DNA of 64,000 nucleotides, taken from Sulfurovum sp. UBA1140. Its GTDB lineage: Bacteria > Campylobacterota > Campylobacteria > Campylobacterales > Sulfurovaceae. The stretch lies in the NCBI GenBank assembly GCA_002311915.1, contig DCAF01000008.1, positions 1,735 through 65,734 of the forward strand, given 5' to 3'. Positions 6,784-16,098 of the stretch are shown in pieces. Position numbers and translations under genes: made by a program. How positions within the stretch are numbered: position 1 is the first letter of the stretch; every line of letters starts with the position of its first letter. Below the pieces are notes generated by a model. The model saw only the letters and a program-made list of their open reading frames with translations. It did not search any database and was not told where the DNA came from.

Positions 6784-6849
6784 GTTCGGGTCTGAACACG
6801 CTAATGTTAAAAATACAAATGGCACAGTCGGAACCGATGGCTTCAGCCT
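6784..6849. repeat. REP-like dispersed palindromic element (type C)
   Basis: Its reverse complement aligns ungapped to 13231-13296 (55/66 identical by hand). It is intergenic and contains hairpins. Confidence 0.85.
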
Positions 6850-10992: not shown

Positions 10993-12083
10993 GTGGCAAC
11001 CTTTTTAAATATTTCAAAAAATCTATCATTTTGTTTAGGGGTTCCAATGGTAATACGTACGGCATTCATGCCATAAGATGCTAAATTGCGAATAATCACT
11101 CCCTCTTTAAGAAGGGCATCTGAAATATGGGTAGAGTTCATGCTATCGTCAAAAAGATAGGTAATAAAGTTGGTATAACTCTCGATATACTCAAACCCAT
11201 GGGCTTTAGCAAAAGCTTCATAACGTACAATCTCTTGGGTATGTAGGGCAATAGACTCTTCTACAAACTCCTCATCTTTACACGCTTCAATACCAGCAAC
11301 CAAAGAGAGGGTTGAGATATTAAAAGGTGGACGCATCTTATAGAGTTCATGAATTAATGGAGCATTGGCAATACCATATCCAACCCGCATACCACCCAAA
11401 CCATACGCTTTAGAGAAGGTTCCTAGATAGATAACATTTTCAAAACCGATAAGGTCATTGGGGGTAATACGATAGGCTTCATCTTTGGCGATGGCATACT
11501 CCATATAGGCTCCATCTACCACCACTAAGGTCTCTTGGCTCACTGCATTGATAATCGCTAGAACATCCTCTTTGGTTGTGGCATCACCTGTAGGATTATT
11601 GGGAGTACAGAGATAGATAATTTTAGGTTGGTGTTTGTTGTAGGCTTCAATAAACTCATCAACTTTATGCTGATAGCTTGGGGTTCTAATAATTTTAGCA
11701 CCCATCTGTTTGGCATAAATCTCATACATGGCAAAGGTAACCTTAGACATAAGTACCGAATCATTCTCTTGCAATATAGCCCGTGCAATAAACTCTAAAA
11801 CTTGGTCACTTCCTGCACCAATAATAATGTTGTTATCTTGGACATCAAAGCGACTTGAGAGGGCAGATTTTAGTTCATAAAAGCTATCATCAGGGTAAAG
11901 AAACGCTTTGTGTGCATTGTTGGCAATCGCCTTAGCTACTTTTGGACTGCACCCTTTAGGGTTTTCATTGGATGCCAATTTAACGACATGCTCAGGGGCA
12001 ATACCAAACTCTCTAACCACGAGTTCAATAGGCTTACCCGCCTCATAAGTTTTTATATCTTTTAACGCATTGTTGAATTGCAT
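10989..12083 (-). CDS. hisC: Histidinol-phosphate aminotransferase
   Basis: [19 protein letters not shown] and [14 protein letters not shown] motifs. Start MQFNN at 12083. Confidence 0.95.
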
Positions 12084-12096
12084 AGGATTCCCTTTT

Positions 12097-13155
12097 TTAA
12101 ATATCGTCACTCTCTTTAACATAAGAGCCTAATATTTTTATAATGCTCTTATGTTTTTGAATAATTTGTTGGATATGTACATCATCTTTGTGTCCACTAA
12201 ACTCAATAAAAAAGATAGATACCCCCTCTACAATATGTGATTTAATTTTGGTTAAATTCACATGGAACTTTTCAAAATCATTTAAGAACTCTACCAATGC
12301 CCCAGGGGTATTGGGTAGACGAACCAACATGGATGTTTTGTCTGTTCCTGAAGGGAGGTTATCAAAGTCACTTACAATAAAAAATCGTGTTTTATTGTTG
12401 GCGTAATCTTCTATATTTTGAAACAAAATAGGAAGGTTGTACATTTTTGCAGCAACATCGGCACAAATAGCAGCTGATCCTTCCTCTTTTCTTGCCAGTT
12501 TTGCAGCCTTGGCAGTTGATTCTACAGGAATCTGTTCAATCTCATCGAGTTCACAATCTTCTAAAAACTTCTGACACTGACCAAAAGCAATATCTTTTGA
12601 GTAGATTCTTTTTATCTCTTTCACATCATTACAGGTGGTTGCTAAGGTGTGATGAATATCTACAAAAACTTCGGCAATAATTTTTAGATTGTAATCGTTT
12701 AGGCAGTTGATGGTATCACTTACAATTCCATTAGAGCTGTTCTCGATAGGGATAACTCCAAACTTGGCAGTGCCTCTGCTCACCTCTCTAAAGACCCCTT
12801 TAATAGAACCAATCGAAAGATAAGCACTCATGGCACCAAATTTACTCTCGGCTGCTTGGTGAGTAAAACTTGCCTCGGGTCCTAAATAGGCGATGCGTTC
12901 AGGAAGTTCAAGATTTCTAGCCACGGCAAACATCTCTAAAAAGAGTGCATCAATGGCATCATTGGTTAGCTTTCCTTGGTTTTGTTCTTTTAGACGGGTT
13001 AAGATAGATTGCTCTCTCTCTGGACGATAGATGGGTGCACCCGTTGTCTTTTTTAACTCTCCTACCTGATGGACAAACTCCATACGTTGGTTATAGAGCT
13101 TTAGTAGTGTGTCATCTATGGTATCAATTTCAATGCGTAACTCATCTAGTGTCAT
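12097..13155 (-). CDS. pheA: Chorismate mutase / prephenate dehydratase (P-protein)
   Basis: N-terminal CM domain ([15 protein letters not shown]), [21 protein letters not shown], and an ACT domain. Confidence 0.95.
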
Positions 13156-13192
13156 TGTCTCTCCTTCAATTTATGCTTGGTAAAACTGTTTT

Positions 13193-13373
13193 GGAAACGG
13201 AGAGTTTACTCCAATGCCAATGAATTAGCGAGGCTGAAGCCATCGGTTCCGACTATGCCATCTGCATTTTCGGAATCGGCGTGTTTACACCCGAACTATT
13301 TGTTTCAAAAAAAGCTTAATTCATTGGCATTAGAGTTTACTCCCGAACAACGGAGGCAGAGCTTTCCAATTCC
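13193..13373. repeat. Composite nested REP-like element: a type A unit interrupted by a 15-bp inverted-repeat-bounded insert carrying type C
   Basis: The flanks match revcomp 61301-61350 at 46/50. Direct repeat AGAGTTTACTCC at 13201-13212 and 13332-13343. Perfect inverted repeat at 13213-13227 / 13317-13331. Confidence 0.9.
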
Positions 13374-13389
13374 TAGTTCTACAATATAT

Positions 13390-14610
13390 CTATCCTTGCC
13401 AACTCGTATCACACGCCTCTTCTAAGCGTATTAGATCTTCAAAACTCTCTCGTTGACGAATAAGATAATCTTTGCCATCTAAAATAGCCACCTCAGCAGA
13501 TCTTCCACGGGTGTTATAATTACTCGACATGGTAAACCCGTAGGCTCCTGCACTCTGTACAACTAAAATATCGTTGTGTTCCATCATTGGCAAAGGCACA
13601 TCTTTTCCTAAAAAATCACCACTTTCACAAACAGGACCCACCACATCAGCAAGGGTGGTCTCTCCTTCTTTTTGAATCGCTTCAATTTTATGATAGGCGT
13701 TGTAGAGGCTAGGGCGAAGTAGGTCATTCATGGCTCCATCAACAATAACAAATCTTTTTGTTCCATTCTTTTTCTCGTACAGCACTTTGGTTAAAAATAT
13801 ACCTGAGTTTGCCATTAAATATCGCCCTGGTTCTAAGAGAATGGTAACATCTAACCCTTTAATGGTCTGTGTAATGGCATGTGCATAAGCTTCGGGGGTG
13901 ATCATGATTTCATCATTGTAAGTAACCCCTAATCCACCACCAATATCAAAGAATTTAATCTTAATATCTAGGGCTTGAAGTGAGCGTACCAAGTCAGCAA
14001 CTATGGCACACGCTTCTTGAATAGGAGCCAATTGGGTTAATTGTGAACCGATATGAAAGTGAATGCCTATCGAGTTGAGGTATTCAGACTTTTTAGCATA
14101 AATATACATGCGTTTGGCACTCTGGATACTCACCCCAAACTTGTTCTCATGAAGTCCTGTCGAGATATACCGGTGGGTTTTAGGGTCAACATCAGGGTTA
14201 ACACGAATAGAGATACGTGCTTGAATATTTAAGCTTTTAGCTATCATCTCAACCCGTTTCATCTCGGCTTCACTCTCTAGGTTAATAAGTAGAATTCCTG
14301 CTTGGAGTGCTTGACGTATTTCGTCATCTTTTTTACCCACACCTGAAAAGATAATTTTATATTTACTAACCCCTGCTTTTAATGCCCGTTGAACCTCACC
14401 AATGCTCACACAGTCTGCTCCTGCACCCAGTTTTGCCAAGTGGCGAATAACTGCCAAGTTAGAGTTAGATTTTACTGCATATGCTACCAGTGATTTCTTT
14501 CCATTAAAAGCACCCTTTAGCTCTTCATATTGTTTGGTTATCTTATCAAAATCATATACATAGAGAGGCGTATTGTATCTGTTTGCCAGTGTTTTTATAT
14601 CTAAACTCAT
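13390..14610 (-). CDS. lysA: Diaminopimelate decarboxylase
   Basis: YAVKSN, HFHIGSQ, DIGGGLG, EPGR and GPVCESGD motifs. Confidence 0.97.
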   Translation of the reverse strand: MSLDIKTLANRYNTPLYVYDFDKITKQYEELKGAFNGKKSLVAYAVKSNSNLAVIRHLAKLGAGADCVSIGEVQRALKAGVSKYKIIFSGVGKKDDEIRQALQAGILLINLESEAEMKRVEMIAKSLNIQARISIRVNPDVDPKTHRYISTGLHENKFGVSIQSAKRMYIYAKKSEYLNSIGIHFHIGSQLTQLAPIQEACAIVADLVRSLQALDIKIKFFDIGGGLGVTYNDEIMITPEAYAHAITQTIKGLDVTILLEPGRYLMANSGIFLTKVLYEKKNGTKRFVIVDGAMNDLLRPSLYNAYHKIEAIQKEGETTLADVVGPVCESGDFLGKDVPLPMMEHNDILVVQSAGAYGFTMSSNYNTRGRSAEVAILDGKDYLIRQRESFEDLIRLEEACDTSWQG

Positions 14611-14691
14611 TTTAGTACTGTCCTAATCATTGTTATTGGTCGCGATTTTATCTAAAATTTGGTTATAGGTTGGTGAGTGAAGAGGAGAAGC

Positions 14692-16098
14692 CTACTTTAA
14701 CAGATTAGAAAAGCTCTCTAAAATAACCTTTCTATACTCTTCTATTATCTCTTCATTACACTTATCTTTGTTTCTTAATTTTAGATGCAATTTTTCAAGT
14801 TTTTTTCGCATCTCACTGTCAATTAGCTGTTCGGTGTAAGAGGCTTCATTTTCTAGTACCACACTGTTGCGTAAGGCATGAGAACGTTTGGCAATGACCG
14901 AGGCATGAAACAGTGCGCGTCCTAGTAAAATATAGGGAAAATTAATATTTTGCATGGGACCAATGGTGAGTTGTCGATGACCAATATTTTTACCCATTAC
15001 TTTAACTTCATAGAGGTTGTTAAACCCCAACATGGCACCAATACCACCCACGGTTCCACCAATAATAGAGCCTAGAAAAAAGGTTCCACCACCAAGGGCT
15101 AGGTCAATGCCAAGCCCCCCGATGGCACCTGCTGATGCTCCTGTTATCATTAATGCTTTTTGACTCAGCCCAAAGATAGAAGCACTCTCTTTCGAGAAGA
15201 GTCCCACGTCGTCGAGTACCAAAGCATTTTCTACTTTGTCAATACTTCGATGATTCCATATCTGTTCAATATTTTTTTCACGCTCTTTTTCATAATTGAC
15301 AATCTGCTGTTGATAGGCAGTCTGAGAAGATGATTTCTCTTTTTTGGTTGCAGATTCCCCTTTGATATCTTTACTATAAACAAAGGTGAGTGACTTCTGC
15401 ATACTCTCGACGATGGTATCAACGCTTTGATCTATCTTCTGTTGGTGTAGCCCATTTAAGACATCAATGGCAACTTTAATCGGCTGTGTCCACTCCTCTT
15501 TAAGTTGTGCCATGCTCTCTAGTAAATCCATATGGTTATTAAAGGTGGCTTCAATAGGATTAAAGGTTCTTACCAGTCTAAAGTAGTGTCCTAATGCACG
15601 TTTCCACTGTTCTGTGTAGTCTTCATTTCCTATAAGATTGAGTATTGCCATCGAGGGTTGACCCGTTCGTCTTAAAATCTCCATCTCAATTTCATACTCT
15701 GCCCCATAAGGTTTAGAGGCATCAACCACATAGATAATACCTGCACCCTCCATAATGGGTTCAAGCAGTTCAATCTCATCTCTAAAGCGTGGGTCATCAC
15801 GATGTTTGGCAATGAAAATTTTAAGCAGATCGGCACGTCTGTCTGCTGGTACTGATTCTTGCTCTTCTAGCCACCCCAAGACCCTTCTTGCCCGTTGAAA
15901 ACCAGGGGTATCAAAGAGTTCATAAATAATTTTACCATCAACTTTAAGAGGGAAACCCCTTTTGACCTGTGTGGTTCCAGGGGTGTCTCCTATCTGTACC
16001 GAATCATCGAGTGCCAATGAAGAGACAATACTGCTCTTTCCTTTATTGGGGTGTCCCACCACTGCAAATTTAGGATAATTTTTACTGTTCTGCATCAT
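14692..16098 (-). CDS. P-loop GTPase with a C-terminal glycine-zipper/TM region (DUF3482-type)
   Basis: G1 GHPNKGKSS, G2 TPGTT, G3 DTPG, and hydrophobic GASAGAIGGLGIDLALGG..GGTVGGIGA. Confidence 0.8.
   Translation of the reverse strand: MMQNSKNYPKFAVVGHPNKGKSSIVSSLALDDSVQIGDTPGTTQVKRGFPLKVDGKIIYELFDTPGFQRARRVLGWLEEQESVPADRRADLLKIFIAKHRDDPRFRDEIELLEPIMEGAGIIYVVDASKPYGAEYEIEMEILRRTGQPSMAILNLIGNEDYTEQWKRALGHYFRLVRTFNPIEATFNNHMDLLESMAQLKEEWTQPIKVAIDVLNGLHQQKIDQSVDTIVESMQKSLTFVYSKDIKGESATKKEKSSSQTAYQQQIVNYEKEREKNIEQIWNHRSIDKVENALVLDDVGLFSKESASIFGLSQKALMITGASAGAIGGLGIDLALGGGTFFLGSIIGGTVGGIGAMLGFNNLYEVKVMGKNIGHRQLTIGPMQNINFPYILLGRALFHASVIAKRSHALRNSVVLENEASYTEQLIDSEMRKKLEKLHLKLRNKDKCNEEIIEEYRKVILESFSNLLK

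Follow-up and report, generated by a model that had tools for sequence, protein, structure and literature searches.

The 234-bp spacer between lysA and pheA in the source Sulfurovum genome is made up almost entirely of two nested mobile elements. The inner one, at positions 13212-13332 of the window (the whole 64,000-nucleotide stretch of DNA analysed here), is very probably a 121-bp MITE, mobilised in trans by an IS4-family transposase into the apex of hairpin 1 of a short dispersed repeat, termed type A. The evidence comes from the anatomy of the spacer, from copies of the MITE with their own target duplications in sister species, from an autonomous insertion sequence (IS) with the same ends and from a marked preference of these elements for the tips of hairpins.

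Anatomy of the lysA-pheA spacer

The features of the locus, together with two reference units located elsewhere in the window, are as follows (window coordinates; features without a strand were read as unstranded).

6784..6849, minus strand: free-standing type C unit without terminal inverted repeats, used for comparison with the cargo
12097..13155, minus strand: pheA (chorismate mutase / prephenate dehydratase), an ORF with the Pfam families CM_2, PDT and ACT, downstream of the spacer
13166..13192: outer arm of type A on the pheA side, TTATGCTTGGTAAAACTGTTTT (sequence reading)
13193..13201: left part of the type A core, GGAAACGGA, as far as the insertion point (sequence reading)
13202..13211: left copy of the 10-bp target duplication, GAGTTTACTC, at the hairpin 1 apex of type A
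13212..13227, plus strand: MITE terminal inverted repeat, left end, CAATGCCAATGAATTA, the same sequence as that found at either end of the 1459-bp IS of genome G001
13228..13316: cargo of the MITE, a type C module plus an A-rich tail (89 bp, non-coding)
13317..13332, minus strand: MITE terminal inverted repeat, right end, TAATTCATTGGCATT plus A; six other assemblies have G as the final base
13333..13342: right copy of the 10-bp target duplication, GAGTTTACTC (sequence reading)
13343..13373: right part of the type A core (CCGAACAACGG, hairpin 2, CCAATTCC; sequence reading)
13374..13392: outer arm of type A on the lysA side, reading TAGATATATTGTAGAACTA on the minus strand (sequence reading)
13390..14610, minus strand: lysA (diaminopimelate decarboxylase), identified by its ORF and Pfam families, upstream of the spacer
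61301..61350, minus strand: intact type A core, the uninterrupted reference for the target

On the plus strand the order is thus GGAAACGGA, GAGTTTACTC, the MITE (CAATGCCAATGAATTA, 89 bp and TAATTCATTGGCATTA), GAGTTTACTC and CCGAACAACGGAGGCAGAGCTTTCCAATTCC. The original prediction, which described a type A unit split by 131 bp, was borne out: positions 13193-13211 joined to 13343-13373 give a 50-mer that agrees with the reverse complement of 61301-61350 at 46 of 50 positions. The 131 bp consist of the 121-bp MITE and one copy of the 10-bp duplication, and taking out these two parts restores the type A 50-mer. The duplicated sequence GAGTTTACTC, at 13202..13211, is composed of a 3-bp stem, a 4-nt loop and a 3-bp stem, and forms the apex of hairpin 1. 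Within the cargo, hairpin 2 is followed by a spacer with an ATGC..GCAT palindrome, by hairpin 1 and by the A-rich tail; as had been proposed, a type C unit lies inside the insert, since the inner 89 bp align with the free unit near 6784-6849 at 58 of 71 positions (82%). The MITE is small and has no coding capacity, the sole ORF across it being an 82-aa mechanical frame which covers the entire spacer. The type A outer arm on the pheA side appears weakly similar to the type B outer inverted repeat (flank consensus TAATAGACATCTTGCAAAACTCTTT, by-eye comparison), and the arm on the lysA side, whose first three bases on the minus strand are the lysA stop codon TAG, may likewise be similar to the type B outer repeat TAGACATCTTGCAAAACT. 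As the MITE interrupts type A, and the duplication is made of type A sequence, type A would have been in place first and the MITE second, an order that is read from the anatomy and not from an observed intermediate.

The lengths of the repeat and of the duplication required revision. A perfect 15-bp inverted repeat (AATGCCAATGAATTA / TAATTCATTGGCATT) and a 12-bp duplication had been described, and both can be read in the sequence, with AGAGTTTACTCC standing on both sides of the insert; the true terminal repeat, however, is 16 bp long, and the true duplication is the 10-bp GAGTTTACTC. The earlier 12 bp represent these 10 bp plus one chance-matching base per side. The first base of the repeat (C) equals the base next after the target, and position 13332 is A in this MAG and G in six other assemblies of the same clone, in which the apparent duplication is 11 bp. 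This position is the sole difference inside the element between the MAG and the six assemblies, and it may represent a real variant or a consensus error. Compared with the 16-bp repeat, the window copy matches at 16/16 positions on the left and 15/16 on the right. In the window the boundary between repeat and duplication is ambiguous because the target is itself palindromic, and it is resolved only through other copies: in three copies from sister species (L091, L093, L094) the bases just outside the 10-mer differ between the two sides, so that the duplication is exactly 10 bp and the element reads C-AATGCC...GGCATT-G.

Identical PheA and LysA sequences are found on many public contigs. Six independent metagenome contigs, deriving from different samples and assemblers (JGI and ENA) and 99.94-99.97% identical to the source over 5-7 kb around the genes, span the spacer and have the same 234-bp structure. 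A local misassembly of multi-copy repeats might be suspected in an 80-contig MAG, the more so as Logan contigs end inside the element (L019-L022, L024) and base 13332 differs from other assemblies; but such endings are expected of a multi-copy repeat and the six longer contigs agree throughout the spacer, so that an artefact of this kind can practically be dismissed.

In the other Sulfurovum species examined, most lysA-pheA spacers measure 11-61 bp, and in a minority there are unrelated inserts, 70-184 bp long, of which many contain GTAG-headed REPs or REPINs; neither type A nor the window MITE was found in this spacer among these species. The GTDB species of the genus have pheA at most ~81% identical. 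The closest relative (L153), with a 96% identical PheA, has a spacer of 100 bp, formed by a different GTAG-REP pair inside another palindrome and devoid of type A. The search for an empty allele with type A only, which had been suggested as a check, returned none across the relatives, and all assemblies of the clone (~99.95% identical) carry the insert. Given the unrelated inserts in the spacers of many species, the lysA-pheA spacer is a recurrent landing site. Independent invasion by unrelated repeats was observed at L029-L057, L005, L006, L009 and L153; the repeats include GTAG REPs and REPINs (e.g. CGTAGGGTCGGTAACACCGACC...GGTCGGTGTTACCGACCCTACG) and an element of the GTTCCCA type of roughly 160 bp, and several of these spacers have the GTAG head next to, or overlapping, the stop codon of lysA.

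As an alternative to selfish DNA, a dedicated regulatory RNA, such as a pheA leader or attenuator, was also considered. Transcribed from the minus strand, the spacer folds strongly (-76.5 kcal/mol, z = -4.9) and it occupies the 5' region of pheA, but the folding energy derives from the terminal repeats and the hairpin repeats. No Rfam match was obtained in 12000-15000 at E <= 1, the scan of the spacer returned no terminator-like site, and promoter-like sites were at chance level, not above the shuffled expectation. Moreover, the other species examined, including the 96% relative, have 11-61 bp or unrelated repeats at this position. A dedicated RNA is therefore highly improbable, and a side effect on the coupling of lysA and pheA expression is possible.

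The MITE family and its probable IS4-family partner

A pattern search across 40 genomes of the genus recovered the 16-mer CAATGCCAATGAATTA in 26 of them; G031 has 145 copies, G003 has 151 and the source genome has 14. The reversed control pattern occurs 0-1 times per genome in the same 40, and the abundance of the 16-mer is far beyond chance. The inverted repeat thus exists with many other flanks, one of the checks that had been proposed. The 15-mer has 11 exact copies in the source genome, in many contexts which first suggested a shuffling of modules; the genus-wide search for the 16-mer settled against it. In G031 and G034 the 16-mers occur as inverted pairs ~105 bp apart, each pair enclosing the cargo seen in the window (type C plus A-rich tail) as one unit of ~121 bp. 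In the source genome the copies other than that of the window are truncated or miss one repeat, and the window copy is the best-preserved member of the family there.

Exact 10-bp duplications surround full ~121-bp copies at 8 sites in G031 and G034, for example cgaGGCTAAAGCC / element / GGCTAAAGCCatcgg (L091, L094) and ggaGACTTTAGTC / element / GACTTTAGTCccgaa (L092). A 134-bp version in G003 has exact 10-bp duplications at L143, L145 and L146, as well as in a recurrent composite described below. In total, exact duplications were found at 13 independent sites (the window and 12 in sister species), the element being multi-copy with its own duplication of ~10 bp at each; the relatives compared are all MAGs, in which the flanks of multi-copy elements may be chimeric. 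As the duplicated sequences and the flanks differ, a single inherited ancestral composite is excluded as their source. Inverted or non-matching flanks, or flanks from different hairpins, were observed at MITE copies L089, L102, L104, L138, L142 and L147 (G031, G034, G037, G003), which fits recombination between dispersed copies with exchange of flanks.

These data bear on a different origin of the locus, namely a BIME-like mosaic built by recombination or template switching between hairpin modules, in which no transposition would be involved and the 15-mer would be a linker. The A, B and C modules do occur in many combinations: a complete type A is joined to the left part of C in three places (C15:20085, C16:28286 and C67:39273), the junction between the left part of A and the inverted repeat recurs at C49:38486, C49:47853 and C58:15392, and some copies have exchanged or inverted flanks. 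Such a mosaic does not account for exact 10-bp direct duplications at 13 independent sites, nor for an IS that has identical ends and codes for an IS4-family transposase, and the recurrence of junctions is explained by a strong target preference. We consider this reading very improbable, the duplications and the autonomous IS having effectively refuted it.

The IS was reached from a Pfam DDE_Tnp_1 search, which identified a fragment in the source genome at C7, 13 bp from a copy of the 16-mer. This remnant (C7:957-1459) comprises one repeat and the C-terminal 157 aa of a transposase, 92% identical to the G001 protein. A shorter remnant of the IS is present at C30 and another decayed piece at C15, and the 93%-complete assembly of the source genome contains no intact IS4-family transposase or IS copy. 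Searching the genus with the C7 fragment yielded two full-length elements, in G001 and G046. In G001, a sister Sulfurovum, the IS (C127) is 1459 bp long, with perfect 16-bp repeats and an ORF of 464 aa, whose frame is preceded by an A9 run and has an ambiguous start codon. The copy in G046 (C90) measures 1493 bp, with a frame of 483 aa and repeats off by one base (CAATGCCAATGAAATA). The G001 protein matches NCBIfam NF033592, "IS4 family transposase", with 151 bits (cut-off 115) and Pfam DDE_Tnp_1 with 57.8 bits, and the Y-(2)-R-(3)-E-(6)-K signature can be read in it (LYFKRWEVEIGYDVLK). A transposase with the same terminal repeats, for which a search had been recommended, is thereby identified, CAATGCCAATGAATTA being present 16/16 at both ends of the G001 IS. 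The intact copies in G001 and G046 have no clean 10-bp duplication in their MAG contigs.

For the IS4 subgroup, the ends are reported to follow the consensus -AATR--------WTW----, and the direct repeats to measure 10-13 bp (PMC2266710, Table 1). The repeat described here matches this consensus at every specified position, and the 10-bp duplication falls inside that range. MITE and IS have in common only the terminal 16-18 bases, which identifies the MITE as a repeat shell with a foreign cargo and not as a deletion derivative of the IS. Other candidates for a partner were discarded in G031: the genes between distant repeat pairs (C42, C152) are ordinary and include no transposase, and the DDE matches at C177 and C213, which by eye look like IS1634-like and IS1182/IS5-like elements, lack the 16-bp repeat.

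A trans-supplied IS4-family DDE transposase would thus move the MITE by cut-and-paste, a chemistry which is established for IS10 and IS50 of the same family. Insertion would have occurred into the apex of hairpin 1 of the type A repeat between lysA and pheA, where target cuts staggered by 10 bp, followed by gap repair, would leave the apex GAGTTTACTC duplicated. With no intact transposase in the source assembly, the window copy is presumably immobile at present.

Hairpin repeats as targets and the number of nested layers

The source genome is a 2.0-Mb MAG with 35.9% GC. Its self-comparison revealed ~220 short repeat islands, roughly 22 kb in all, belonging to three related families. Type A, with 34 near-full-length copies, is formed by GGAAWCGG, hairpin 1, CGAAYAACGG, hairpin 2 and CCGATTCC; type B (~13-16 copies) follows the same plan with other hairpin sequences, and in type C the same two hairpin units follow the opposite, head-in order and are separated by a spacer. 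Variation in the hairpin stems takes the form of paired changes (GCG/CGC, GAG/CTC, GTG/CAC, GAC/GTC), which indicates that structure is the conserved feature. In hairpin 1 of type A the paired substitutions give GCGTTTACGC, GAGTTTACTC, GCATTTATGC and GTGTTTACAC, and the shape of the stem is kept across subfamilies. Outer inverted arms of ~21 bp resembling TAATAGACATCTTGCAAAACT were observed in type B copies and in some type A copies, including that of the window (e.g. C35:13288-13382, C67:35799-35896); the 50-bp double-hairpin cores may thus be the centres of MITE-like elements of ~95 bp.

These repeats are the preferred targets of the MITE. In G031, where 40 further repeat ends were picked in listing order, 36 adjoin a 10-mer that differs from GRCTWWAGYC by no more than one base (29 are exact matches), and in 30 of the 40 target 10-mers the 3-bp ends are perfectly complementary. 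Such 10-mers form the tips of type A, B and C hairpins, with a loop of 4 nt between two 3-bp halves of the stem, and in the source genome 11 of 15 repeat ends adjoin such hairpins. In G003 an unrelated REP, GTTCCCAT-CCGTCCTCGG-TGGGAAT, also carries the element at its apex, and the duplications are exact at L143 and L145. Two sites, the window target GAGTTTACTC and GTGTTTACAC in G031, depart from the consensus at positions 3 and 8, where the changes are paired; symmetry hence seems to matter alongside sequence in the choice of target. The expectation that the locus would record the target preference of the element proved correct, the preference being for the 10-mers at hairpin apices. In the proposed mechanism the transposase would favour palindromic 10-mers (GRCTWWAGYC) at the tips of REP-like hairpins, small repeats would in consequence serve as landing pads, and nested structures would accumulate.

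The number of layers at the locus was reconsidered in the light of the cargo. Successive nested insertions had been inferred, and one of them, the insertion of a MITE into a type A hairpin with target duplication, is upheld by the data. For the other, of type C into a palindrome, the data give no support: what was taken for a palindrome is the pair of repeats belonging to the MITE, and type C is its cargo. Across species, shells with the same terminal repeats carry at least four unrelated cargos, mostly of REP type, namely type C, a GTAGGGACAA-type REP pair (L095, L097), a GTAGGTTCGAT REPIN (G003, with a similar one in G012, L103) and another in G037 (L104). Capture or exchange of cargo consequently does happen, and the cargo has been acquired or exchanged somehow. 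This diversity of cargos, together with the existence of free type C units without terminal repeats, could favour a three-step history, where a cargo-less shell of inverted repeats first entered type A and type C later entered the shell. The source genome, however, holds no cargo-less shell, and no duplication surrounds type C inside the shell. Furthermore, the repeats, type C and the tail recur with identical internal junctions in G031 and G034, so that the cargo was in place before the element spread and type C is the cargo of a single MITE. The three-step history is accordingly judged unlikely, and the insertion of a ready-made MITE into type A is preferred.

Deeper nesting was observed in the sister species G003, in a 271-bp composite of four layers (L129-L141, e.g. 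L129 26-296). A 134-bp MITE with the IS4-type repeats described above carries a GTAG REPIN (a GTAGGTTCGATTTCATCGAAC pair) as cargo, this MITE lies inside a type B hairpin with the duplication GACTTTAGTC, and the type B unit is in turn enclosed by an outer element that extends from GGCATGTTTCATAAGTAGTTTACACTTT to GATGCC. The composite occurs on at least 11 contigs with unique flanks; of its 10 evaluable copies, 6 are bordered by exact 8-bp AT-rich duplications, which indicate that the 271-bp composite itself has transposed.

Relation to known elements and significance

The original prediction spoke of a MITE/REPIN-like element. The first term is appropriate, in view of the 16-bp repeats and the 10-bp duplication, but the mechanism is very probably IS4-family DDE transposition instead of one of the REPIN/RAYT type. 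With REPINs, RAYTs and BIMEs the locus shares short dispersed hairpins, which often form inverted doublets within mosaic clusters; in sister species the same spacer is occupied by REPs and REPINs with a GTAG head, and Y1 transposase genes are present in the source genome. Types A, B and C, however, start with GGAAWCGG and contain no GTAG head. On the question of a BIME-type mosaic, their clusters combine alternating head-out and head-in units with hybrids, but the supposed linker 15-mer is a transposon end. Inverted repeats at the termini and a 10-bp duplication distinguish the inserted element from REPINs, of which insertion without target duplication is expected; Y1 (IS200/IS605-type) transposition is not known to give such a combination. 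A link to RAYTs was also rejected on the basis of the Y1 genes, which are not flanked by A, B or C repeats: Y1_Tnp has three matches in the source genome, none with such repeats beside it, as far as can be read for the one that borders an N gap at the end of its contig.

Two observations concern these Y1 genes in their own right. L025 (C40:67020-68963) is a tnpA of the IS200/IS605 type (Y1_Tnp, 144 bits) at a contig end, and its end sequence resembles a hairpin repeat of roughly 50 bp, TTATCACATTATAGCGAAAAACCACCTCTCTTTAGGGGGTGGAGTTGTCAA, present in 15 copies (e.g. C18:3593-3647), which look like solo ends or mini-elements of this IS. In L026, at 1471-2877 (C49:32559-33965), a 468-aa ORF has a weak Y1_Tnp match at its N-terminus (41 bits) and a long unrelated C-terminal region; no flanking repeats were found around it.

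Insertion sequences that target REPs are well documented, and include ISRm22 (IS4 family, Sinorhizobium meliloti), IS1397/ISKpn1 (IS3 family) and IS621 (IS110 family) (PMC1525189, Tobes & Pareja 2006). All 10 of 10 ISRm22 copies lie in REPs (PMC1525189, Table 2), and IS1397/ISKpn1 insert into the palindromic units of E. coli BIMEs (PMC1525189). As in these cases, a transposase picks short extragenic palindromic repeats, and ISRm22 belongs to the same IS family. The present case differs in that the inserted element is a 121-bp non-autonomous MITE which itself carries a REP-like module, the sequence targeted consists of the 10 bp at the apex of a hairpin, the host belongs to the Campylobacterota (Sulfurovum), and the repeats are not classical GTAG REPs.

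Mobile insertion cassettes (MICs), which occur in the IS4 family alongside MITEs, are mobilised in trans. MIC231 of IS231 (Bacillus cereus group) resembles the element described here in having only its terminal inverted repeats in common with the parent IS, the interior being unrelated, and in a duplication of roughly one helical turn. The IS231 subgroup has duplications of 10-12 bp and CAT... ends (PMC2266710, Table 1), whereas the repeat reported here fits the ends of the IS4 subgroup (-AATR...WTW); the cargo is a hairpin repeat and not genes, and the host phylum is another. A further parallel is that of a symmetric target with GCT...AGC half-sites, here G-GCT-WW-AGC-C. In Tn10/IS10 the hot spot NGCTNAGCN is symmetric with these half-sites, and the duplication is 9 bp. 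The duplication found here is 10 bp, the target lies inside a dispersed hairpin repeat, and GAGTTTACTC (window), GTGTTTACAC and CCGTCCTCGG are used despite their differing half-site bases.

Further precedents exist for the single components of the locus. In Geobacter uraniireducens the MITE named Chunjie lies between the genes of an operon and leaves the coding sequence uninterrupted (PMC10969869), but it belongs to another family and is not nested in another repeat. Elements of the IS4 subgroup with highly conserved target arms are known (PMC2266710); REP dimers nested inside other palindromes, and GTAG REPs donating TAG stop codons, have been described (PMC3733652), and CGTC-tagged REPs have been reported for Sulfurovum sp. 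NBC37-1 (PMC3733652). In a 2024 review of prokaryotic MITEs the word "nested" does not occur (PMC10969869). The ingredients of the nesting event are all known already, and the locus reveals no new mechanism.

The nested elements explain why the spacer measures 234 bp in the source genome, whereas in most of the other Sulfurovum species it does not exceed a few dozen base pairs. They also bring to light a previously unnamed pair in deep-sea, hydrothermal-vent Sulfurovum, an IS4-family IS and its MITEs, with an unusually clean target rule, the 10-bp hairpin apex. In MAGs with ~150 copies many contigs end inside the repeat. In practical terms, these repeats can be regarded as assembly breakpoints and as strain markers. 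In addition, an example from the Campylobacterota is added to a known theme, that of REP-like palindromes as insertion hot spots for IS elements.

A more speculative reading, which we hold to be rather doubtful but worth stating, is that the IS4-family transposase reads the geometry or symmetry of the hairpin apex instead of a fixed sequence, and cuts 10 bp apart, centred on the loop. This recognition may span unrelated REP families, as GRCTWWAGYC, GAGTTTACTC and, in a GTTCCCA...TGGGAA REP, CCGTCCTCGG are all used. If this were true, dispersed hairpin repeats would be harmless landing pads and nested composites would still be mobile; the growth of repeats within repeats would be self-reinforcing in Sulfurovum, and the enzyme would be a naturally site-selective DDE transposase.
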